The notes beneath the pieces were generated by a model. It saw nothing but the letters and a program-made list of their open reading frames with translations, did no database searches and was not told the origin of the DNA. This document shows, in pieces, positions 311-49,944 of a stretch of DNA of 64,000 nt (positions are counted from its first letter, which is position 1; each line of letters begins with the position of its first letter). The stretch comes from Escherichia coli (GTDB lineage Bacteria; Pseudomonadota; Gammaproteobacteria; Enterobacterales; Enterobacteriaceae): assembly GCF_009931435.1 (NCBI RefSeq), contig NZ_CP043414.1; one strand, given 5' to 3'. The position numbers and the translations under genes are program-made.

Positions 311-673
311 ACTTGTAACATGGCCGGTGCTTTACTCACCGGCTTGTTATCCTCTTGAAATATCCCACTAATAATCATGCTTATTTAAGCCAAATTAACC
401 ACGCAATTAACCACTCTTAGTTTAATAGCCATAAAACCCCTAATAAAAATGTATGAATATGAAAACCCTACGGTATTCGCTGTTTCCGAAAAATAATTAC
501 GATGGGCTATACTCTTCTGAAGAACAGTAGCGTAGATTGAAACTGTCCTAAGTCGCTTATTTCTTTTCAGTATATCTTCATATTTCAGGAGAATATGTGC
601 AGTTAGTCGATCTCGCACGTTGCGTTTCGTTTTTGATTCCGTCTGCTTTCCCAGCCTTATAAGGGTGTGAATT

Positions 674-2056
674 ATGGAGATGTATTTTAAAAGAATGAAA
701 GATGAGTGGACCGGGCTTGTCGAACAGGCAGATCCGCTCATTCGTGCCAAAGCCGCGGAAATTGCCGTTGCGCATGCCCATTACCTGAGCATTGAGTTTT
801 ACCGAATTGTCCGTATCGACCCGCATGCCGAAGAATTCTTGAGTAATGAACAAGTTGAGCGGCAGCTGAAAAGTGCGATGGAACGCTGGATTATTAATGT
901 GCTTTCTGCCCAGGTTGACGATGTTGAAAGGCTAATACAAATCCAGCATACCGTCGCAGAAGTGCATGCCCGCATCGGCATTCCAGTAGAAATTGTCGAG
1001 ATGGGGTTTCGGGTGCTGAAAAAAATCCTCTATCCGGTCATCTTCTCTTCGGATTATTCCGCCGCAGAAAAACTTCAGGTCTACCATTTCTCTATTAACA
1101 GTATTGATATCGCGATGGAAGTGATGACCCGCGCGTTTACCTTTAGTGACAGTAGTGCCTCAAAGGAAGATGAAAACTATCGTATCTTCTCGTTACTGGA
1201 AAACGCCGAAGAAGAAAAAGAACGGCAAATAGCCTCAATACTTTCATGGGAAATAGATATTATCTATAAAGTCTTGCTGGATTCTGATTTAGGCAGTAGT
1301 TTGCCTTTAAGCCAGGCTGATTTTGGCCTGTGGTTTAACCATAAAGGTCGACATTATTTTAGCGGCATTGCCGAAGTGGGTCATATCTCCCGCCTGATTC
1401 AGGATTTCGACGGTATTTTTAATCAAACCATACGTAATGCAAAAAATTTGAGCAACAAAACTCTACGGGTGAGATTTTTATTACAGATAAGAAATACCGT
1501 ATCGCAAATTATTACCTTGCTGCGTGAATTATTTGAAGAAGTATCTCGCCACGAAGTGGGTATGGATGTACTGACAAAATTACTTAACCGCCGCTTCCTG
1601 CCGACCATCTTTAAACGCGAAATTGCCCATGCCAACCGGACCGGAACCCCCCTGTCAGTGCTGATTATTGACGTTGATAAATTCAAAGAGATCAACGATA
1701 CGTGGGGCCATAACACCGGTGATGAAATTTTGCGTAAAGTTTCTCAGGCCTTTTACGACAACGTCCGCAGTAGTGATTATGTTTTTCGTTACGGGGGAGA
1801 TGAATTTATCATTGTCCTGACTGAAGCTTCTGAAAACGAAACGTTACGTACCGCAGAACGTATTCGCAGTCGGGTGGAGAAAACCAAACTGAAAGCCGCA
1901 AACGGCGAAGATATTGCCCTCTCACTGTCCATCGGCGCAGCTATGTTTAATGGTCATCCTGACTATGAGCGCCTCATTCAAATAGCCGATGAAGCTCTGT
2001 ATATCGCCAAAAGACGAGGTAGAAACCGTGTTGAACTCTGGAAAGCCAGTCTTTAG
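674..2056 (+). CDS. dosC: Diguanylate cyclase DosC (globin-coupled heme sensor, GGDEF domain)
   Basis: 460 aa ORF; C-terminal GGDEF signature (RYGGDEF) visible in translation; N-terminal sensor domain; followed by dosP. Confidence 0.92.
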   Translation: MEMYFKRMKDEWTGLVEQADPLIRAKAAEIAVAHAHYLSIEFYRIVRIDPHAEEFLSNEQVERQLKSAMERWIINVLSAQVDDVERLIQIQHTVAEVHARIGIPVEIVEMGFRVLKKILYPVIFSSDYSAAEKLQVYHFSINSIDIAMEVMTRAFTFSDSSASKEDENYRIFSLLENAEEEKERQIASILSWEIDIIYKVLLDSDLGSSLPLSQADFGLWFNHKGRHYFSGIAEVGHISRLIQDFDGIFNQTIRNAKNLSNKTLRVRFLLQIRNTVSQIITLLRELFEEVSRHEVGMDVLTKLLNRRFLPTIFKREIAHANRTGTPLSVLIIDVDKFKEINDTWGHNTGDEILRKVSQAFYDNVRSSDYVFRYGGDEFIIVLTEASENETLRTAERIRSRVEKTKLKAANGEDIALSLSIGAAMFNGHPDYERLIQIADEALYIAKRRGRNRVELWKASL

Positions 2057-2080
2057 ATGCGCCAGGATGCAGAGGTAATC

Positions 2081-4480
2081 ATGAAGCTAACCGATGCGGA
2101 TAATGCCGCCGATGGCATTTTTTTCCCCGCCCTTGAGCAAAATATGATGGGCGCGGTGTTAATTAACGAAAATGATGAAGTGATGTTTTTCAACCCCGCC
2201 GCAGAGAAGCTCTGGGGATACAAACGTGAAGAAGTCATTGGCAAAAACATTGATATGCTGATTCCGCGGGATTTGCGTCCTGCGCATCCTGAATATATCC
2301 GTCACAACCGTGAAGGCGGTAAAGCGCGCGTCGAGGGGATGAGTCGGGAGCTGCAGCTGGAGAAAAAAGACGGCAGTAAAATCTGGACCCGTTTTGCGCT
2401 ATCGAAAGTGAGCGCCGAGGGTAAAATTTATTACCTGGCGCTGGTACGTGATGCCAGCGTAGAAATGGCGCAAAAAGAACAGACCCGACAATTGATTATT
2501 GCTGTTGACCATCTCGACCGACCGGTGATTGTCCTCGATCCGGAACGCCATATTGTGCAGTGCAATCGCGCATTTACCGAAATGTTTGGTTACTGCATTA
2601 GCGAAGCCAGCGGTATGCAGCCCGATACACTCCTGAACATTCCAGAATTCCCTGCTGATAACCGCATTCGTTTACAACAGTTGCTATGGAAAACCGCCCG
2701 CGATCAGGACGAATTTCTGCTGTTGACGCGCACCGGTGAAAAAATCTGGATCAAAGCCTCTATCAGCCCGGTCTATGATGTGCTCGCACATCTGCAGAAC
2801 CTGGTAATGACTTTCTCGGATATCACCGAAGAACGGCAAATCCGCCAGCTTGAAGGCAATATTCTCGCCGCCATGTGCAGCAGCCCGCCATTTCATGAAA
2901 TGGGGGAAATCATTTGTCGTAACATCGAATCTGTTCTCAACGAATCGCATGTTTCGCTGTTCGCGCTGCGCAACGGGATGCCGATACACTGGGCGTCATC
3001 TTCGCACGGTACAGAAGTTCAAAATGCGCAAAGCTGGTCAGCGACCATTCGTCAGCGTGATGGCGCACCGGCGGGGATCCTGCAAATTAAAACCTCGTCA
3101 GGAGCAGAAACCAGCGCCTTTATCGAACGTGTGGCAGATATCAGCCAGCATATGGCCGCGCTGGCGCTGGAACAGGAAAAAAGCCGTCAGCATATTGAAC
3201 AACTCATCCAATTTGATCCGATGACCGGTCTGCCAAATCGCAATAACCTGCACAATTACCTCGATGACCTGGTCGACAAAGCCGTCTCTCCGGTGGTCTA
3301 TCTCATCGGTGTTGACCATATTCAGGATGTGATTGATAGCCTTGGCTATGCGTGGGCCGATCAGGCATTGCTGGAAGTGGTCAATCGCTTTCGTGAAAAA
3401 CTCAAACCGGATCAGTATCTCTGTCGTATCGAAGGTACGCAGTTTGTCCTCGTGAGCCTGGAAAACGACGTCAGTAACATTACCCAAATCGCCGATGAGC
3501 TACGGAATGTGGTCAGCAAGCCGATAATGATTGACGATAAACCATTCCCGCTCACCTTGAGCATTGGCATCAGCTACGACGTGGGTAAAAACCGCGATTA
3601 CCTGCTCTCCACTGCTCACAATGCAATGGATTTTATTCGCAAAAATGGCGGTAACGGCTGGCAGTTCTTCAGCCCGGTGATGAACGAAATGGTGAAAGAA
3701 CGATTGATATTAGGCGCAGCGCTGAAAGAAGCGATTAGCAATAACCAACTGAAACTGGTTTACCAACCACAAATCTTCGCAGAAACGGGTGAACTGTATG
3801 GTATCGAAGCCCTTGCTCGCTGGCACGATCCTCTGCATGGTCATGTGCCCCCTTCACGGTTTATTCCTCTCGCAGAAGAGATTGGCGAAATCGAAAATAT
3901 TGGGCGCTGGGTCATCGCGGAAGCTTGCCGTCAGTTAGCAGAATGGCGTAGCCAGAATATTCATATTCCAGCGTTATCCGTTAACTTGTCTGCGCTGCAC
4001 TTCCGCAGTAATCAGCTGCCTAATCAGGTGTCTGATGCAATGCAAGTCTGGGGCATTGACGGCCACCAGCTAACGGTGGAAATCACCGAAAGCATGATGA
4101 TGGAACACGATACGGAAATTTTTAAGCGCATCCAGATCCTGCGCGATATGGGCGTGGGTTTATCGGTAGATGATTTTGGCACGGGCTTTTCCGGATTATC
4201 CCGCTTAGTCAGTCTTCCGGTAACGGAAATCAAAATTGACAAAAGTTTTGTTGATCGTTGTCTGACGGAAAAACGCATCCTTGCCTTACTTGAAGCCATT
4301 ACCAGCATTGGGCAAAGCCTCAATTTAACCGTCGTGGCGGAAGGCGTCGAAACCAAAGAGCAATTTGAGATGCTACGTAAGATCCACTGTCGCGTTATTC
4401 AGGGATATTTCTTTTCCCGGCCCCTTCCCGCCGAAGAAATTCCAGGCTGGATGAGCAGCGTGTTACCGCTGAAAATCTGA
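2081..4480 (+). CDS. dosP: c-di-GMP phosphodiesterase DosP (PAS heme sensor + GGDEF-like + EAL)
   Basis: Track ORF 2057-4480; start placed at internal ATG 2081 (MKLTDADNA...) giving 799 aa; EAL region (QPQIFAETGELYGIEALARW) in translation. Confidence 0.92.
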   Translation: MKLTDADNAADGIFFPALEQNMMGAVLINENDEVMFFNPAAEKLWGYKREEVIGKNIDMLIPRDLRPAHPEYIRHNREGGKARVEGMSRELQLEKKDGSKIWTRFALSKVSAEGKIYYLALVRDASVEMAQKEQTRQLIIAVDHLDRPVIVLDPERHIVQCNRAFTEMFGYCISEASGMQPDTLLNIPEFPADNRIRLQQLLWKTARDQDEFLLLTRTGEKIWIKASISPVYDVLAHLQNLVMTFSDITEERQIRQLEGNILAAMCSSPPFHEMGEIICRNIESVLNESHVSLFALRNGMPIHWASSSHGTEVQNAQSWSATIRQRDGAPAGILQIKTSSGAETSAFIERVADISQHMAALALEQEKSRQHIEQLIQFDPMTGLPNRNNLHNYLDDLVDKAVSPVVYLIGVDHIQDVIDSLGYAWADQALLEVVNRFREKLKPDQYLCRIEGTQFVLVSLENDVSNITQIADELRNVVSKPIMIDDKPFPLTLSIGISYDVGKNRDYLLSTAHNAMDFIRKNGGNGWQFFSPVMNEMVKERLILGAALKEAISNNQLKLVYQPQIFAETGELYGIEALARWHDPLHGHVPPSRFIPLAEEIGEIENIGRWVIAEACRQLAEWRSQNIHIPALSVNLSALHFRSNQLPNQVSDAMQVWGIDGHQLTVEITESMMMEHDTEIFKRIQILRDMGVGLSVDDFGTGFSGLSRLVSLPVTEIKIDKSFVDRCLTEKRILALLEAITSIGQSLNLTVVAEGVETKEQFEMLRKIHCRVIQGYFFSRPLPAEEIPGWMSSVLPLKI

Positions 4481-4491
4481 CAAATTCCTCT

Positions 4492-4516
4492 CGCCCGCAC
4501 TCGCGGGTTTTCATTT
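4492..4516 (+). terminator. Rho-independent terminator after dosP
   Basis: GC stem cccgc/gcggg followed by ttttcattt just after dosP stop. Confidence 0.5.
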
Positions 4517-4737
4517 AACGTGACACTGTCACTTAAATACTGTGATTTCAGCTACGATTCCGGGAGATTCCTTCCTTAACTTCCCCTCTTGCACCAAAAC
4601 TGCACTACGCTGCACAAATGTTGATCAAAAGTTAAAAAATATAACTTTAAGCCAGCATTCTGGCGCTTATCCCGGCATGGCATGAGATCTGCATAAGCGG
4701 AAAGCGCAGCAATTTTTGTCTTATACAGGAACCGTTT

Positions 4738-37270: not shown

Positions 37271-37993
37271 TTACAATTTGTAGCATGACGGATATAGGAC
37301 AACATTAGGAAATCGGACAGAAAATTCATTATAATAAAATGACAACTTATCTCTTTCTCTCACGTTCTGTGAAATTTCACAAAAGTATAAACTGAGCCAA
37401 TATGCCTTTATATATAAAAAATACTCATGTTTATTATTATCGGAAAAAGCCAAGATTTGATTAAGGCCATCAAAAATATCTTTCTCATGATCTATATGTA
37501 CTCTTGATGATTTTACAATATCTTTTAATTCGCGGTAAATCTTATTAAATAGCGCAACCGATTCACTGTTATTGAATCCATAGTTGATAAAAAGACATGA
37601 TTTAACATCCGATATTAGCAAGTCGTCATAATTCATCTCTATTTCAGACAATTTCACGATATACTCAGCTATAGTATTACTTTGTAAGGACTCAACAACT
37701 GACAGTAAAACAGATGGATGCAATAATATTTCAAGAAGACTTTTATCGATATTTTTATACACATTTATTGCAAATTCATCATTCGTCCCATCGATGGTGT
37801 CAGATATTGAAAAAAATACATAATCGGGGAGTTCATACCACATATTAATTTTAATAATATCACGACACATATCTTCTAATTGTTGTAATCTATTACCTTT
37901 ATTCATAACAACCTTAATATTATATGGAATCTTTGGCGGAATCTTCTTAACTCTGAGGAATTTTACTAAACCTTTGTTAGAGAAAATATGCAT
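37271..37993 (-). CDS. Hypothetical protein, AT-rich orphan ORF (no recognisable domain)
   Basis: 240 aa ORF, very low GC, no signal peptide or motif recognised; directly downstream of ISAs1 remnant. Confidence 0.45.
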   Translation of the reverse strand: MHIFSNKGLVKFLRVKKIPPKIPYNIKVVMNKGNRLQQLEDMCRDIIKINMWYELPDYVFFSISDTIDGTNDEFAINVYKNIDKSLLEILLHPSVLLSVVESLQSNTIAEYIVKLSEIEMNYDDLLISDVKSCLFINYGFNNSESVALFNKIYRELKDIVKSSRVHIDHEKDIFDGLNQILAFSDNNKHEYFLYIKAYWLSLYFCEISQNVRERDKLSFYYNEFSVRFPNVVLYPSCYKL

Positions 37994-38069: not shown

Positions 38070-39280
38070 TTCATGATAGTTAAGGGGAGTGCTAACTTAA
38101 TATAAACACCCAGGGCAAGATTACGAAAGCCCGCTCCCCGCAAGGACTGACGCCAGATACTTTCTGTCCATGGTTGCTTTTCGCATCTTACGTCTTAACC
38201 CTGCTTGAATACCTCATCATTCGTCAAAATATTAATAGCGATGTGCCGTATCCCTGAAAATAATTCTGCTGCATTTCCTCTTCTTATTTTGCAGTCGTCT
38301 TCATTCATTACCACGTCCAGACGCCAGTGCAGCTTATTCTCCACGTGCCAGTGGTTTCGGATTGCTGTGGCGAACTTCTCTGCGGTTAAATCAGCAGAAC
38401 TGATATAATATCTGACCGTCATTTCTGGCTCTTTCTTTTGTTCTGCTATTATTGACCGAAAGGAGACTGCCACGCATAATTTCTTCAGACCTTTCCATTC
38501 AAACGTGAAATCAATAAGTTCATCAGGGACATCGCAAACAATGTGAAGACGGATTTCTTCTCTGCCGTGACTCTTTTCACTAATTGCGTAACTGTCATGC
38601 TCTGGATTATTTAATTCTTTCAGCGGAAATTTTTCCTCGAAGCCTTTATTTAGCCGCCCCTGGTTTCCTTTTACAGCGAATAAATAATCACCTCCCTGTT
38701 TTTGTATCTTCTCTGCAATATCTTTCTGGCAACCCATCGCATCAGTTGTGATGATTTTTCCTTTAATATCCAGCATGTTAAGAAGTTCTGGGATAGCTGT
38801 AATCTCATTGGATTTCTCATCCGTCTTGATCTGTCCGATGACCAGACTGTGCATTGTTGAGAACGCACTAATGACATGAATCGCTCCCCTGCGGCGACTC
38901 TTGTCATAAGAGTGCCGGAGCGTTTTTCCATCAATTGCAATGACGTCTTTATCATCTGAAGAATGGCAGTCACGCATCCAGTTAATAAAGCACTCATGAA
39001 ATTTTGCAGGACTGATACAGGATACAACTTTGGCAATGATATCGTGAACAGGAATACCATTTTCAAAATCACCATATCACTTCAAAAAATCGAGATGTGT
39101 TTCCCAAAAATTCGCTATATTTTCCTATCCTTCTGCACCAAAAATAACGGCACAAATAGCCAACAGTAGAATATCCGATAATTTATGCTCCACTTTCCAG
39201 GCTTGTCTGTAATCGGGGATAACAGAAATATGTTCCATCAATTTTTTAAGTACCATTTTGTTCTCCTTAATTATGTAAGG
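38070..39280 (-). mobile_element. ISAs1-family (H-repeat) insertion sequence, boundaries approximate
   Basis: Transposase-homologous sequence flanked by imperfect inverted repeats (about 38073-38087 atgatagttaagggg vs 39263-39277 ctccttaattatgta). Confidence 0.5.
38195..39238 (-). pseudogene. ISAs1-family transposase (H-repeat-associated protein) inactivated by two in-frame nonsense codons
   Basis: Hand translation from ATG 39238: [37 protein letters not shown]-stop-ENIANFWETHLDFLK-stop-YGDFENG..., continuing in frame into track ORF 38195-38977 ([11 protein letters not shown]...). Confidence 0.8.
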
Positions 39281-39562
39281 AGTATTTGATCATGTATAAG
39301 CAATAAAAAACAGCTTCAGGTAATGAGGAATATCTCAATTTTTAAACATAAAATGCGAATTGTTTAGTACAAAAAGTGTACTTCTGATGATCTTTCCCTG
39401 CCTATCAGCCCCCCTGCTGAACCCTGCACAATATCCAGTCCCTTGCGGGTCATGTCACCCTGCCGCGCCGCCGGTTTTCCGCTCATGGTTTATTCCTTTT
39501 CTTTTACCTTACATGTCCATACAAATAGTTACCTATACTGTCTTTGAATATTGCCCTACCAT

Positions 39563-40012
39563 TTAAAGCCCACCTATTTCTTGCGACAGAAAAGGGATTT
39601 CTTTTTTAATCCAATCTATCATTTCATTTTTTTCAAAACATACGTTAATGCCATTCACACTGCCACATTCACCAAAACCATCAAAATAAATTTCACATTT
39701 ATTATTTTTATTCGAAACAATGTCAACCCCCCATCTTATATCGTTATTCTCCTCCTTCCTGAAATACTTCATTTGCAATAAATCAATTATCTCACCAGCA
39801 TAAAAATCGCTAACCCCATTCACCACCACTTTATGTTTGTATATTCTCTTGAGACCTTCCTTGCTAAGCGGGGTTAAGGTGGTAACATATGCTGGAAGAT
39901 TAATTATTTCTATCGTTTTCACACTATCTATTCCACACAATTCATTCACTCGCCCCATCCCCAATACCGAAGCAGAAAATAGAGACAATAAAACCATCAA
40001 ATATTTCATCAT
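39563..40012 (-). CDS. Candidate Rhs immunity protein with N-terminal signal peptide
   Basis: 149 aa; starts 12 nt after Rhs stop; hydrophobic N-terminus MMKYLMVLLSLFSASVLG; AT-rich. Confidence 0.5.
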   Translation of the reverse strand: MMKYLMVLLSLFSASVLGMGRVNELCGIDSVKTIEIINLPAYVTTLTPLSKEGLKRIYKHKVVVNGVSDFYAGEIIDLLQMKYFRKEENNDIRWGVDIVSNKNNKCEIYFDGFGECGSVNGINVCFEKNEMIDWIKKEIPFLSQEIGGL

Positions 40013-40024
40013 AAAAAAATCTCA

Positions 40025-43000
40025 CTATTCTGGCGTGCCATTTATTGTTGCCGTCTGCGTTGGTGTATTCACACGATAATACACTCCATTATATGCTGTT
40101 CTGGTACACTCACCTAAAGTTTTCGCCGCATGCTGTTCAATTAAAGTGATAACTCTCGCCTCTTCTTTATTTTTATATTGTTCATCCGCACGTCTCACAA
40201 GCCCCATATAACCATCCTTATCAATAAGATATAAGTGCGCATGAGCAAACTCATGCCCCAAACCTAATGCAGGTGATTGTGATTTCGATTTTAAATCAGT
40301 TGAACAAAATAAAGCCGCCTTACCATTCCAATATATAGTCATTTTATCCGGGTCAAATCTAACGTCGGTTTCATCAATATACTCTATCTTTATGGTTTCT
40401 TCAGAGCTTGATAAAAAATCTATAGCTTCTTTCATTCGTGAATCTTGTTTTAAATACTCAACAGCCTGATTAAAATCACTTGGATCACCGTTAACATGGA
40501 ATTTTAAACCCAAAGAATCTATAAACCGAACAGGGTTTAATGGATATTTATACAGATTCCATTCACCTCTTAGCCCGATTGGATCCTGGGTGATATACCT
40601 CCCCTGTAGCGGGTCATAGTACCGGTTCCGGTTATAATACAGCCCCGACTCCTCATCGTGTTGCTGCCCTGGCAGACGGTACGGCTGGTGCATGTGATGC
40701 GAGTTTTCCTCATTCAGCAGGTTTCCCCACTCATCATACTCCCCGCTCCACGCCGTATTGCCGTCTTCGCTGATGAGCGCCAGCGGCAGGCCCCGGTGGT
40801 CGCAGTGATACAGATGCAGCGTGCGTGCCGGTGTGTATTCCGGCTCCACCTGTCTGGCCAGTTGCTCCACCGTCAGCCCGCACTGCGCAAGCCACGCCCG
40901 GCTTTCACTGCTCACGCGGTCTGCCCGGATTTCTTCCTCCAGCCTGTCCAGCATCCTCACAAGTTCTGCCGGGAACACCACACCGTGCCCGTCCTCACTC
41001 CCTTCCTGCTGCAGCTTCTCCGCCAGGCTCCGGCGCTGCGCTTTCTCCCGCTCGCCGTTCTCTGTTTCGATGCGGATGAGCGGCGTGAAGCTCCCAGGCT
41101 GGTAGACCGTCTGGATACGTGTGGTGTCGGTCTGTACCGTCGTCAGCCGGTCACCGTCCCACCCGTACCACGTTACCTCCGGTTTACGCGACAGCGACAT
41201 CCACCCCGTCAGGTCACGCTCCCGCCGCCATACCCGTTTCGCCATTCGCCGTCCCAGCGGGTCGTAGAGGTAGCGGCTCTCGACCAGTGGCTCGCCATGC
41301 TGTATCCGCGTGTAGAACACCAGGCGTGCTGGCTGTCGTAGTGGTAGTGGTGGGTCCGCTCGTCGTCCGTCCGTATCACACCCGCCGGGATGCGGTCCGT
41401 CTTCTCCGTCAGCCTGCCGTATTCATCGTGGCGGTAGACATAGTGCGCATCCTCCGCGATGCGGTTATCCGGCCACACTGTGAGTGTACTGTCCGGGTGC
41501 AGCTCCGGGTCCGGCAGCCGGTTGCCCGCCGGGTCCGTGGCATACGGGATGCGGATGTCCAGGTCCGGTGCGAGGGTGCGCACGCTCTCCAGCCTGCCCG
41601 TGGCACTGTAGCCGTATTCCCGCGTCTGTCGCGGGCCGCTGATGCGCACCAGGTCGCCGTTGTCATTCCACCCGTAGTCACGGTCATACACCAGGCTGTT
41701 CAGGTGCTGACTCTGTAACTGACCTGCGGGGGTGTATGTGCTGGTCAGTTCGTATGCGGAATTACTGCCTGCCATGCTGCCGAAGCTGCGCACCGTCTCA
41801 CGGTGCAGCCTGTCCCGCGTATACTCGACCAGCGGCGTCCCGCCCAGCTTCATTCCCGCCAGGTAACCGCTGCCATACGTCAGCCACTCCACCGGCGGCA
41901 GGCTGTCCGGCGTGACGCGGTTTGCCAGCCCCTGTTCGTTGTATGCCTGTTTCGTCTCATGCTGCCAGAGCAGTTCCTCCGTCTCCGGGTTATGCACCGT
42001 CTGGCGCTCGCCAGTCAGACGGCCCTTGTCGTCATAGCCATAGTGGACGGCAACACGGTGGCCTTCGCTCAGGTGGCTGATTTCTCTCAGCCAGCCGTGG
42101 CCATCATACTGCCACTGCTCTGCCGGTTCGCCGTTCACCGTGCGGTGCGTGATGCGGTCCGATTCGTCGTAGTGCCAGAGGGTGACAAGCCCCTCATCTT
42201 CACTCTGCGTGAGTTTTCCGGTCAGGTCATAGTGGTAACGTTGCGTCCGCCCGTCAAAGCCGCGCTGCTGTACCAGCCGGTCCAGCGCATCGTAGGTAAA
42301 CTCACTTCGGCTGCCGTTCTCGTTAGTCAGCGTGGTGACACGTCCGGCAGCATCATACTCCATACTGCGCGTCAGCCCGCCCTGCGTGGTACTGACCGCC
42401 TTTCCCCACGCATCGTACTGTGTCTCACTCCGGTTGCCATCCGGGGTGATGACGGCGGTCAGGTCGCCTGCGGCGTTGTACTCATACTGCGTTTCACGGC
42501 CCTGTGCGTCTTTCACCGAGGTTAACCGGCCACGGTTGTCATAGCGGCGGTAAAGGCTGATACCTTCCTCGCGGTGAACCGCCGTCATCTGGCCGAAGCG
42601 GTCGTATTCATAGCGGGTCTGGTAGCCCGAGCAGTCGGTGAAGGCCAGCAACTGCCCGTAGCGGCTCCAGGTCATCTGCCGGGTGCTGCCCGTCGCATCC
42701 GTTGTCGTCGCCGGTAACTCACTGTGCGGATTATCATAAGCATACCGGATGACGTCCCCGCTGCGCGATGTCTCCGTTACCAGCCTGTCCCGCTCATCAT
42801 ACGCCCGGCGGCTCTCCAGCCCGTCCGGGGACACCACCGCCGTTAACTGGTTCCCGTCGTTATAGTAAAATTTCGTCTCCCGCCCGTCCGGCGTGGTGAT
42901 ATCCGTGATATCGCCGGACACCACATTCAGGCCGTACTCTGTCCGCCGTCCCGCCGCGTCCGTCTGTGCCGTGAGCCTTCCTGCCGCGTCATACCCGCTG

Positions 43001-44277
43001 TGCGTGACGCTGCCGTCCGCCAGTTCTTTTTTCACCACCCGCTTCAGCCCGGCCCCGCCTTCTGTATGCAGCACCTCTCGCCGGTTCAGGCTGTCCGTGA
43101 TGGTGATGCGGTCCTGCTCATAAAGATAGCGATAGCTTAACCCTGCCGGGTTCAGCTGCTCCACCACCCGCCCGGTATCGTCGTAGCGGTAGCGCATCTC
43201 CGGCCTTCCCGCATAACGGTGCCCCACCATCCGGCCCGGGTGCTGCGCGTCATACGTGAAAGCGCGCACCTGCGTATTGCTGCGGTCATATACCGCCAGC
43301 AGTTCACCGGCTTCCGTATACGTGTAACGCGCCAGTGGCGCACCGGGCAGATTCTCCGGGTATGCCGGGTCGTGCATCAGCCACACCGCCGAAAGACGGA
43401 TGCCCCTGTCGGGGCCGTATTCCGTACCGGGCAGTGTGTCGGGGAACGCTGAGGCTGAGAGAGGGCGGGAACGGTCAGAAGAAGATAGCGAAGAGGTGCG
43501 GGCCTCTTCCGCACGCTGCGCCTGCGTGGTCAGCACCAGACGGAACTTCCGCCCGGCACCGTCCGTCACGCTGGTGATTTCCCCAGCCAGGTCACCGGCG
43601 GCCTCACGCCGGTACGTCAGCGTCCGCCCGAAGCGGTCCGCCAGCCCGGTAAGCACCCGGTACGGCGGCAGCGGCGCTGGCAGTACGTCCTCAGCACCCG
43701 GCACCCGCTCACTCCACCCCAGTATCCACCACGACCCCTGTGCGCTGTTGGTCGCCAGGTAAAGATGCGGGCTTAACCGGATATCCGGCGGCAGCGCCCC
43801 CCACAGTCGCGCCAGCGTGTGGCCGTCCGGCTGCGCTGCCTTACCACCGCGCACCAGCCACATTGACTCGCTGCGGCTGTACACCGCCTCCCCCGGCAGC
43901 AGCGGCTCAAAGTGAATGCTCCGCCCGCCGTTGTCGTTGAGTATCAGTGCGTCATCACGTAGCTGTAAGCGGATATCCGAAGGCGCTTTCCAGCCGGGGC
44001 CGAAAACGCCCACCGGGGCAGGCGTCCTCGTCCGGTAGCTGCTGTAGGTGCGGGAGAGAATGAACGGCAGCGGGCCGGGCAGCGCAAGGTCCGTCTCGCC
44101 GGGCAGCACCTTCGCCCCCAGCAGCGGATTTACCGGGTTGCCCGAAGTCATCCCGCCCGGACACACCGAGCACGCCACGCCGGTGGGCGCGCCAATTCTT
44201 ACACCTGCCGAACCCTGGACAATGGGACCGCCATACTGAGTCATATCTCCCTGACGCGCTGCTGGTTTTCCGCTCAT
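40025..44277 (-). CDS. Rhs-family polymorphic toxin (PAAR-like N-terminus, YD-repeat shell, variable C-terminal tip), interrupted by an apparent -1 frameshift near 41325
   Basis: Track ORFs 41209-44277 (1022 aa) and 40025-41320 (431 aa) overlap in different frames; YD repeats throughout; DPIGL core-end motif; C-terminal tip contains HEFAH. Confidence 0.85.
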
Positions 44278-47560: not shown

Positions 47561-48178
47561 TCAAATAATTTCATTCCTTTTTAATACTTCTTGTAATTTC
47601 GGTAACTGACATACAGCATCAGCGATCGCACTGATATTCGTGGCATTATCCTGAAACCATTCATGCCCAGGCCCCCATGTGCGCATAGTGCAAAGATAAC
47701 AGTCCACCAGCGTTAGTTGCTCACCAAACGCATAAGGTTCAGCGGTCAATTGTGAATTCAGCCAGATATAAAGCGATTTACGATATTCAATAACATTCTT
47801 CTTTAACTGTTCGGGTGCGTCAGGAGCCCAACGCTCAGGGTAATCGGCGAAAGTGAATGTTGGATAGACATTAGCAACCAGCCAGACCAATAGCCGTTGA
47901 AACTGCTGACGTTCGGCGCGCCTAACCGGTGGCGCAAGGTCCGGGCGACGATCGAGAACCATCAATGCAATCGCCGCTGTCTCCGTCATAATCTCGTCAT
48001 TTTCCAGCGCCAGTGTCGGAATCTGACACAACGGGTTCAGGGTTTTCAATAACTCGCGTGAAGTTCCCTCGTGGTCAAAACCACTGACATCAACGAACTG
48101 ATAAGGAATATCAGCCAGTGATAGCATCAGCTCACTGATTGTAGAGCCCCATCCGGGTACGCCATACACCTTAATCAT
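47561..48178 (-). CDS. yncG: Glutathione S-transferase homologue
   Basis: 205 aa ORF MIKVYGVPGWGSTISELMLSLADIPYQF... Confidence 0.85.
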   Translation of the reverse strand: MIKVYGVPGWGSTISELMLSLADIPYQFVDVSGFDHEGTSRELLKTLNPLCQIPTLALENDEIMTETAAIALMVLDRRPDLAPPVRRAERQQFQRLLVWLVANVYPTFTFADYPERWAPDAPEQLKKNVIEYRKSLYIWLNSQLTAEPYAFGEQLTLVDCYLCTMRTWGPGHEWFQDNATNISAIADAVCQLPKLQEVLKRNEII

Positions 48179-48444
48179 ATGCCCCTCACAATCTTTTAAA
48201 GATTAAGTGTAGGACAGTACACAGGTTAACCAGCAAAAGGATTTGTCATTTTTTCGTCAGTTGTATTATTCCCCTTCAGGATTGTAAGGGGATGTTTTGC
48301 ATCGTTTATCGATAACGGGTAGGATGCTGCGCCGATAGTTTTATACCCATAAAGAATAATGGTGATAACTATCATCGCCAGGATGAATAAACATTGTTCA
48401 TGGCAACTTATATGACTTTTTCATTAAAGCAATCAGGGAGAGCA

Positions 48445-49944
48445 ATGAGTAAACACGACACCGACACTTCAGATCAACACGCCGCGAAACGTCGCTGGCT
48501 TAATGCCCACGAAGAGGGGTATCACAAAGCGATGGGCAATCGCCAGGTACAGATGATCGCCATTGGCGGCGCGATTGGCACCGGCTTGTTTTTAGGTGCA
48601 GGAGCCCGACTGCAAATGGCGGGGCCAGCACTGGCACTGGTCTATTTAATCTGCGGCCTGTTTTCATTTTTTATTCTGCGTGCATTGGGTGAGCTGGTGC
48701 TACACCGCCCTTCCAGTGGCAGTTTTGTCTCTTATGCCCGTGAGTTTTTGGGTGAGAAAGCCGCTTACGTTGCTGGCTGGATGTACTTCATCAACTGGGC
48801 GATGACCGGGATTGTTGATATTACCGCTGTCGCTCTGTATATGCATTACTGGGGCGCGTTTGGCGGCGTGCCGCAGTGGGTCTTTGCGCTCGCTGCGCTG
48901 ACCATCGTTGGCACCATGAATATGATCGGTGTGAAATGGTTTGCGGAGATGGAGTTCTGGTTTGCGCTTATTAAAGTGCTCGCCATTGTGACCTTTTTGG
49001 TCGTGGGTACAGTGTTCCTCGGTAGTGGTCAGCCGCTGGATGGCAACACCACTGGCTTTCATTTAATCACCGATAATGGCGGCTTCTTCCCCCATGGTTT
49101 GCTACCTGCGCTGGTATTGATTCAGGGCGTAGTGTTTGCTTTTGCCTCCATTGAAATGGTGGGTACAGCTGCCGGAGAATGTAAAGATCCGCAGACCATG
49201 GTGCCTAAAGCGATTAACAGTGTGATTTGGCGTATTGGCCTGTTTTACGTCGGCTCCGTGGTGTTGCTGGTTATGTTATTGCCGTGGAGCGCGTATCAGG
49301 CGGGGCAAAGTCCGTTCGTGACGTTTTTCTCTAAACTGGGCGTGCCTTACATCGGCAGCATTATGAACATTGTGGTGCTGACCGCTGCCCTCTCCAGCCT
49401 GAACTCAGGTCTGTACTGCACCGGACGTATTCTGCGCTCAATGGCGATGGGCGGTTCCGCACCGAGTTTTATGGCGAAAATGAGTCGTCAGCATGTGCCG
49501 TATGCCGGGATTCTGGCGACACTAGTTGTGTATGTCGTCGGCGTATTCCTCAACTATCTGGTGCCGTCGCGCGTATTTGAAATTGTGTTGAATTTCGCGT
49601 CGCTGGGAATCATCGCATCATGGGCGTTTATCATTGTTTGCCAGATGCGCCTGCGTAAAGCGATTAAAGAAGGCAAAGCAGCGGATGTCAGTTTTAAACT
49701 GCCTGGCGCGCCCTTCACTTCCTGGCTGACATTACTGTTTTTGCTGAGCGTCCTGGTGCTGATGGCGTTCGATTACCCGAACGGAACTTATACCATTGCG
49801 GCGCTGCCGATTATCGGTATTCTGCTGGTTATAGGCTGGTTTGGTGTGCGCAAACGCGTTGCTGAAATTCACAGCACTGCGCCAGTCGTCGAGGAAGATG
49901 AAGAACAACAGGAAATTGTGTTTAAGCCAGAGACGGCGAGTTAA
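48445..49944 (+). CDS. ansP: L-asparagine permease (APC family)
   Basis: Track ORF 48394-49944; start ATG 48445 (MSKHDTDTSDQHAAKRRWLNAHEEGYHKAM...) gives 499 aa, SD gggagag upstream. Confidence 0.9.
   Translation: MSKHDTDTSDQHAAKRRWLNAHEEGYHKAMGNRQVQMIAIGGAIGTGLFLGAGARLQMAGPALALVYLICGLFSFFILRALGELVLHRPSSGSFVSYAREFLGEKAAYVAGWMYFINWAMTGIVDITAVALYMHYWGAFGGVPQWVFALAALTIVGTMNMIGVKWFAEMEFWFALIKVLAIVTFLVVGTVFLGSGQPLDGNTTGFHLITDNGGFFPHGLLPALVLIQGVVFAFASIEMVGTAAGECKDPQTMVPKAINSVIWRIGLFYVGSVVLLVMLLPWSAYQAGQSPFVTFFSKLGVPYIGSIMNIVVLTAALSSLNSGLYCTGRILRSMAMGGSAPSFMAKMSRQHVPYAGILATLVVYVVGVFLNYLVPSRVFEIVLNFASLGIIASWAFIIVCQMRLRKAIKEGKAADVSFKLPGAPFTSWLTLLFLLSVLVLMAFDYPNGTYTIAALPIIGILLVIGWFGVRKRVAEIHSTAPVVEEDEEQQEIVFKPETAS

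Follow-up and report, generated by a model that had tools for sequence, protein, structure and literature searches.

A putative periplasmic immunity protein behind a frameshifted Rhs gene with an M91-like zinc-protease tip in Escherichia coli

A small open reading frame (ORF) lying directly behind the toxin tip of an Rhs gene raises two questions: whether it encodes the immunity protein of this toxin and, if so, in which compartment of the target cell the toxin would act. The case considered here lies in a 64,000-nt stretch of the E. coli contig NZ_CP043414.1 (assembly GCF_009931435.1), referred to below as the window. The reading that we regard as probable is that an exported cognate immunity protein blocks the zinc-protease tip of the Rhs protein in the periplasm, and that the toxin arm of the pair is broken in this particular window.

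The locus occupies the RhsE site of E. coli, between ansP/yncG and an ISAs1 element, and contains the following features.

48394..49944: ansP
47561..48178: yncG
[quoted passage not shown]
41209..44277, minus strand: N-terminal PAAR-Rhs ORF of 1022 codons, with an out-of-frame end after a deletion
about 41326, minus strand: 1-nt deletion, CAGCACCGCC to CAGCACGCC, located by alignment with the intact 4254-nt Rhs gene of NZ_CP151026
40505..41320, minus strand: last part of the Rhs core, in frame with the tip (Pfam RHS, PF03527, E 7.7e-17)
40025..40504, minus strand: Rhs C-terminal toxin tip, a 159-aa zincin endopeptidase domain resembling M91 and the BoNT light chain
40241..40255, minus strand: HEFAH zinc-binding/catalytic motif of the tip (H84-E85-x-x-H88), read from the sequence and invariant in 18 homologues
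40013..40024, minus strand: spacer from the Rhs stop to the ATG of the next ORF; inspection of the sequence shows a weak GAGA ribosome-binding site in it
39563..40012, minus strand: putative immunity gene of the dsORF-h1 family (ORF translation, RefSeq annotation, dN/dS, AlphaFold model)
39959..40012, minus strand: predicted Sec (SPase I type) signal peptide MMKYLMVLLSLFSASVLG, codons 1-18 of the putative immunity gene (heuristic scan, AlphaFold model, family-wide signals)
39401..39486, minus strand: first 86 nt of a second PAAR-Rhs gene, cut by an ISAs1-like element

The ORF consists of 149 codons, opens with ATG ATG (N-terminus MMKYLMVLLSLFSASVLGMGRVNELCG) and is separated from the TAG of the Rhs frame (40025-40027) by exactly 12 nt (TGAGATTTTTTT), with the weak Shine-Dalgarno sequence standing inside this spacer before ATG1. 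The start 12 nt past the Rhs stop, which the earlier note on this DNA had taken for the classic rhs-rhsI coupling, was thus borne out, both genes being on the same strand; the rest of that description was accurate as well, except that the strand (minus) was left unstated and the single-nucleotide deletion in Rhs near 41326 was overlooked. The proposal that the tip and the ORF form an AT-rich, swapped cassette also agrees with the base composition, the GC content being 0.34-0.39 over 39450-40650 versus 0.60-0.70 over 40650-44250. The drop at about 40650 coincides with the core/tip junction, where a PxxxxDPxGL-type core end is followed by the tip, beginning from KFHV. A promoter/terminator scan of 39200-40800 gave nothing above chance.

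The DNA on the other side of the ORF has been rearranged. Compared with strain 19KM1831 (L001 9301-13959), about 4.66 kb of the second Rhs gene is absent, and the sequence runs on into the ISAs1/ISEc1 element. The ISAs1-like (H-repeat, "ydcC"/ISEc1-type) transposase region (38109..39405, minus strand) has broken frames, with the transposase ORFs 38195..38977 and 38671..39075 overlapping in different frames. Further along, a very AT-rich ORF of 240 aa (37271..37993, minus strand; GC about 0.30) has a counterpart in strain 2020CK-00188 (~97% nucleotide identity) annotated as a hypothetical protein, and it may be another Rhs-associated cargo remnant.

The ORF behind the tip is a real, selected gene and the RhsE-site relative of the "RHS element protein dsORF-h1". 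Its product is identical in amino acid sequence to the RefSeq protein WP_001605072.1, and the gene has one synonymous difference from that of strain 19KM1831, in which, in the same arrangement, an intact gene of 4254 nt annotated as "RHS element core protein" precedes the one for WP_001605072.1, labelled "hypothetical protein". The gene or a close allele of it was found in 1160 of 5426 complete E. coli genomes, the window allele (at least 99% nucleotide identity) being present in 38 of them and an allele of ~90% nucleotide identity in 1017. The latter bears the RefSeq name "RHS element protein dsORF-h1" and also lies directly behind an intact Rhs gene, with a spacer of 11 nt in L010. A dN/dS of 0.38 was obtained for the window allele vs the 85%-identical dsORF-h1 allele (16.3 synonymous and 26.7 non-synonymous differences), and this value, together with the RefSeq-identical protein and the number of genomes, shows that the ORF did not arise by chance. 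The dsORF names were reportedly introduced by Rhs studies of the 1990s (a 1998 Rhs paper). Scans of the window ORF and 37 relatives with Pfam, NCBIfam and PADLOC returned no curated immunity-family match, and searches of PDB sequences with the single proteins and with both profiles (tip and immunity) gave no meaningful match. A match of DUF7584 to the immunity family (E 0.017) was dismissed as noise.

The nature of the toxin can be judged from its tip. The tip-bearing ORF (40025..41320, minus strand) ends in INGTPE followed by TAG, and its first candidate start is a GTG at 41320. Among the 18 homologues, the invariant columns are H84, E85, H88, E114/E115, E123, E132 and R135; in the R135-T-A-Y138 segment, the tyrosine is present in the window, and a histidine takes its place in many relatives. 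The tip therefore carries HExxH, the third Glu ligand and the E...RxxY set shared by M91 and M27, and both this motif set and the link of the M91 fold to the BoNT light chain have been published (PMC6367388). The match of the window tip to Peptidase_M91 (PF14891) was weak and below the Pfam threshold (E 0.056). For the homologues, PF14891 was detected at E ≤ 1e-3 in 9 of 18 (best 6.6e-9), it is precomputed for P0028 and P0029, and the Hafnia alvei relatives bear the NCBI name "M91 family zinc metallopeptidase". Judging by the fold, the tip looks like an apparently intact site-specific protein endopeptidase and not a cell-wall hydrolase. Stand-alone homologues of the protease domain were also observed in environmental genomes (L006/L007 4001..4534; P0036 and similar, 33-38% identity); these have no Rhs carrier and no immunity-like neighbour, so the protease family is not confined to toxin modules.

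Whether the ORF belongs to this tip was judged from other loci. A search with the immunity profile among 1.84 billion cluster representatives gave 53 relatives at E ≤ 1e-3, and the pairing was assessed where the flanking DNA sufficed, the contigs of P0079 and P0061 being too short for gene context. In five other loci (Hafnia alvei, three assemblies and one metagenome), relatives of the immunity protein (24-41% identity) follow a tip of the same family, and the same toxin-then-immunity order occurs in L001, L010, L005, L016, L019 and L008. The tip shared by L005, L008/L009, L016/L017 and L019 carries the pattern ...EExRVI...AAKTLGE, and the ORFs that follow it compare with the window ORF as listed here.

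L005, Hafnia alvei: 28% identity, spacer 8 nt
L016/L017, NCBI assembly and Logan run: 38% identity, 4-nt overlap
L019, Logan run: 24% identity, spacer 161 nt
L008/L009, metagenome and Logan run: about 20-25% identity, spacer 2 nt

Over the six loci, the spacers range from -4 to 12 nt, plus the one of 161 nt. The identities of toxin and immunity proteins co-vary (r 0.78; 15 pairs from six loci), and in the comparison of the window with the dsORF-h1 locus, the tips are 73% and the immunity proteins 85% identical. P0079 represents a read-through from the toxin end (YDNLEEKRVITG) into an immunity homologue. No conserved stretch was present in the broad immunity alignment, and a scan of the genome collection with a narrower alignment returned two loci only, one of them a fragment and the other an orphan copy that stands far from any toxin gene in an Oxalobacteraceae MAG.

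Copies without an adjacent cognate toxin were found in L013, L014 and L021, that of L014 standing behind a different Rhs tip; adjacency to the toxin is thus not universal. The retention of orphans is typical of immunity genes and so favours the assignment to this class. The L013 copy (4010..4567, the Oxalobacteraceae MAG) lies amid housekeeping genes and has a signal or lipobox-like N-terminus, and that of L021 (2501..2932) is isolated, also amid housekeeping genes. The identification of the window ORF as the putative cognate immunity gene of the adjoining Rhs tip is well supported by this context. A separate observation concerns P0017 (ENA contig, 1166 nt), a chimeric dsORF-h1 allele whose C-terminal half is about identical to dsORF-h1, while the other half, at the N-terminus, is of unrelated sequence and lacks hydrophobicity (MANKERVDSLFKSGLDSLKF...); this structure suggests recombination within the immunity gene.

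It could also be supposed that the ORF product is exported and accompanies the tip without inhibiting it, in which case the M91-like tip would be an anti-eukaryotic effector that needs no immunity. The M91-domain T6SS protein Tpe2 of P. aeruginosa was predicted to be anti-eukaryotic and has no immunity gene (PMC9846239), and the M91 and M27 relatives are host-directed toxins (PMC6367388). This explanation would have to account for a tight adjacency kept in six loci while both partners diverge together, for the maintenance of toxin-less orphans, and for an immunity domain that matched no enzyme or transport family; we consider it highly improbable, and the ORF product is treated below as the candidate immunity protein.

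The site of action depends on whether this protein is exported. By the simple rule applied here, an N-terminus counts as a signal if its n-region is positively charged, if one of its 10-mers reaches a Kyte-Doolittle mean of 2 or more, if 12-30 consecutive residues are free of charge, and if small residues occupy -3/-1. The window ORF passes this rule with K3, uncharged residues 4-20 (17 residues) and a best 10-mer mean of 2.43, and candidate cleavage sites occur in several registers (SAS|V, VLG|M and GMG|R), so that the exact site is ambiguous. With about 10-14 residues, the h-region is short, and the c-region is weak. In its strict form, the rule selected 4 of the 65 ATG-initiated ORFs in the window that encode 120 aa or more, the immunity ORF among them; the remaining three appear, by their N-terminal sequence alone, to be a periplasmic binding protein, an inner-membrane protein and a porin-like protein. 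No lipobox of the form [LVI][ASTVI][GAS]C was present within residues 1-70, Cys26 being preceded by N-E-L. In the AlphaFold model (pLDDT 91), residues 3-14 form a detached helix that is modelled with less confidence (pLDDT about 70), and the compact alpha/beta domain behind it exceeds a pLDDT of 90.

The hydrophobic N-terminus that the earlier note had described as an export signal is therefore present by heuristic scan, and it is a family-wide property. Among 41 family representatives with mutual identity of at most 50%, the heuristic scan detected a signal peptide or lipobox in 31, and about 34 were reached by adding P0071 (by eye) and P0060 and P0082, in which in-frame upstream ATGs missed by the gene calls add a classic signal. 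Three of the remaining representatives are partial or read-through calls, and about four appear truly signal-less, e.g., P0080 (L021, 2501..2932), which has no signal and a stop codon 6 nt upstream. Lipobox variants exist among distant relatives, e.g., P0062 with ITGC. Four cysteines lie in the mature part of the immunity protein, and the C26/C106 pair is kept in the enterobacterial P0046, P0048 and P0052; this pattern fits periplasmic disulfide bonding. Sec export of the immunity protein is what we infer from these signals.

Cytoplasmic action is usual among characterised Rhs tips, most of which are nucleases, ADP-ribosyltransferases or NADases, and this was counted in favour of a cytoplasmic immunity protein. 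[quoted passage not shown] Additionally, NleD, the sole characterised M91 protease, cleaves cytosolic host kinases, which counts against a periplasmic site (10.1101/2024.03.05.583533). Met19 is, however, preceded by residues 1-18 that are nearly unchanged between the E. coli alleles, and the weak ribosome-binding site stands before ATG1. Moreover, relatives with 24-54% identity keep mutually unrelated but equally hydrophobic N-termini before the conserved domain, and since hydrophobicity would not persist in an untranslated segment, this N-terminal segment should be translated. A cytoplasmic immunity protein is therefore regarded as very unlikely.

Another alternative leaves the protein facing the periplasm but tethers it to the inner membrane, the N-terminus being an uncleaved signal anchor (a lipid anchor in relatives). 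The ambiguous cleavage site and the weak c-region would agree with such an anchor, as would the lipobox relatives like P0062, the mixture of soluble, lipoprotein and TM-anchored forms in the VgrG2b immunity family (PMC6899460) and the transmembrane domain described for the putative immunity protein of a Salmonella Dublin Rhs-M91 (PMC8867033). At the same time, the uncharged stretch, with just 17 residues and Ser and Gly among them, is rather short to form a stable TM helix, and small -3/-1 residues occur in three registers, so that an uncleaved anchor seems unlikely and a cleaved Sec signal is preferred here.

In the Tae/Tai, Tle/Tli and Tlde1/Tldi1 pairs, a signal-peptide immunity protein marks periplasmic action. 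If the immunity protein of the window is exported, an extracytoplasmic site of toxin action follows for its partner as well, as the earlier note had argued; the family-wide signals support this view, and so does the tip homologue P0035 (L008), which has a Sec-type signal of its own (it starts MRMLRRVFFIAIVAMFVTTQAQA) and would thus meet its immunity protein in the periplasm. In the proposed mechanism, the compact tip of 159 residues would be a zinc endopeptidase of the M91/botulinum-light-chain-like zincin branch, with HExxH, the downstream Glu ligand and RxxY, and it would be delivered on the T6SS VgrG/PAAR spike and released from the Rhs cage. The immunity protein would be synthesised as a precursor with a Sec signal and then exported; cleavage, probably near residue 18-20, would give a periplasmic alpha/beta domain of about 130 residues that is probably disulfide-bonded. 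This domain would bind the protease and block it in the periplasm, where the target would be a periplasmic or envelope protein of the attacked cell and not a cytoplasmic one.

In the window itself, such delivery is doubtful. One C is missing near 41326 (within 41209..41361), and its loss puts the tip in another frame than PAAR and the greater part of the core; no intact PAAR-Rhs frame able to deliver the tip was found in the window. When a 71-mer spanning the deletion was compared with the 5426 complete E. coli genomes, 3703 matched and none was identical, the best match being 98.6% (one gap). The deletion arose either as a pseudogenising mutation private to this sequence or through a sequencing error. 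Owing to this split, the toxin arm would probably not be deliverable and is probably dead in this window, and the immunity gene may be the only working part here. A real deletion would leave the tip with no PAAR/VgrG to carry it and make the immunity gene a functional orphan, one that might still protect against kin whose Rhs copy is intact. A split Rhs gene with the same tip was also observed in Hafnia alvei (L005 465..4513; core 465..4004, tip 4001..4513). In a preprint on STEC O22:H8 (10.1101/2024.03.05.583533), the Rhs-M91 gene was described as split by a premature stop, no homology to immunity proteins was reported and the target was taken to be cytoplasmic. Rhs genes that carry this metalloprotease tip may thus be disrupted recurrently (Hafnia, STEC O22:H8).

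The RefSeq annotation of dsORF-h1, the listed Rhs-M91 proteins and the principle of periplasmic T6SS effector-immunity pairs were already known. The new element is that M91-like Rhs tips are accompanied by a conserved partner family, most members of which bear a predicted signal peptide, and the conservation of such a partner argues for an antibacterial, periplasmic role of these tips. The best reading of the pair, supported by the data presented here, is that of an uncharacterised, putatively periplasm-acting T6SS effector-immunity pair; no experimental work on it was found in the literature searched. T6SS effectors of the M91 type have been listed repeatedly and never characterised, and published guesses placed their targets in the bacterial cytoplasm or in eukaryotes, with no recognised immunity. 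The periplasmic reading runs counter to these guesses and would correct them: a bacterial target in the periplasm is predicted, and the search for the substrate narrows to the envelope proteome. The immunity family, with 53 cluster representatives and its presence in more than a thousand complete E. coli genomes, spans Enterobacteriaceae to environmental metagenomes, has no Pfam or NCBIfam entry and is a candidate for annotation pipelines. A more far-reaching proposal, which we put forward tentatively and rate slightly below an even chance, is that bacteria use the Rhs tip against rival bacteria as a miniature botulinum-light-chain-like endopeptidase, which would cut one specific periplasmic or envelope protein, the dsORF-h1 family being the first natural protein inhibitor family of the M91/M27 clade. 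The immunity protein may then offer a natural inhibitor scaffold for proteases related to the botulinum light chain.

Among known systems, the closest analogy is provided by VgrG2b and PA0261. In this pair from the P. aeruginosa H2-T6SS (Wood et al. 2019), the C-terminal metallopeptidase of VgrG2b kills from the periplasm only, and PA0261 protects only when it has its signal peptide and requires DsbA/disulfide bonds (PMC6899460). Both systems combine a T6SS HExxH zinc metallopeptidase with a following small gene for a protein with an N-terminal signal, and in both the immunity family mixes signal-peptide and lipoprotein forms, TM-anchored forms occurring in the PA0261 family too. Membership in the VgrG2b/PA0261 family was nevertheless rejected, as neither sequence homology nor close structural homology to the VgrG2b C-terminal domain (PDB 6H56) was found. 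The HExxH motif, downstream Glu and RxxY-type motif of the tip are instead those of M91 (NleD, HopH1; PF14891; "Tox-HopH1", Zhang et al. 2012). The 2012 survey of polymorphic toxins recorded Tox-HopH1 on RHS/T6SS proteins and listed no immunity family for it (PMC3482391), and in Salmonella Dublin, an Rhs protein with an M91 domain was described together with a putative TM-containing immunity protein (PMC8867033). Unlike NleD, a T3SS effector cleaving the host kinases JNK and p38, the tip considered here is an Rhs tip with a conserved partner that is predicted to be exported. The nearest relative of this partner is dsORF-h1 of the RhsH element, with which it shares 85% amino acid identity, the length of 149 aa, the signal peptide and the position behind an Rhs gene with a 73%-identical tip; the window gene differs from it as a distinct allele, WP_001605072.1, found in 38 complete genomes vs 1017. 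Finally, whereas Tae, Tle and Tlde1 are amidases, lipases and L,D-transpeptidase-like enzymes directed at peptidoglycan or lipid, the tip described here appears to have the fold of a site-specific protein endopeptidase.
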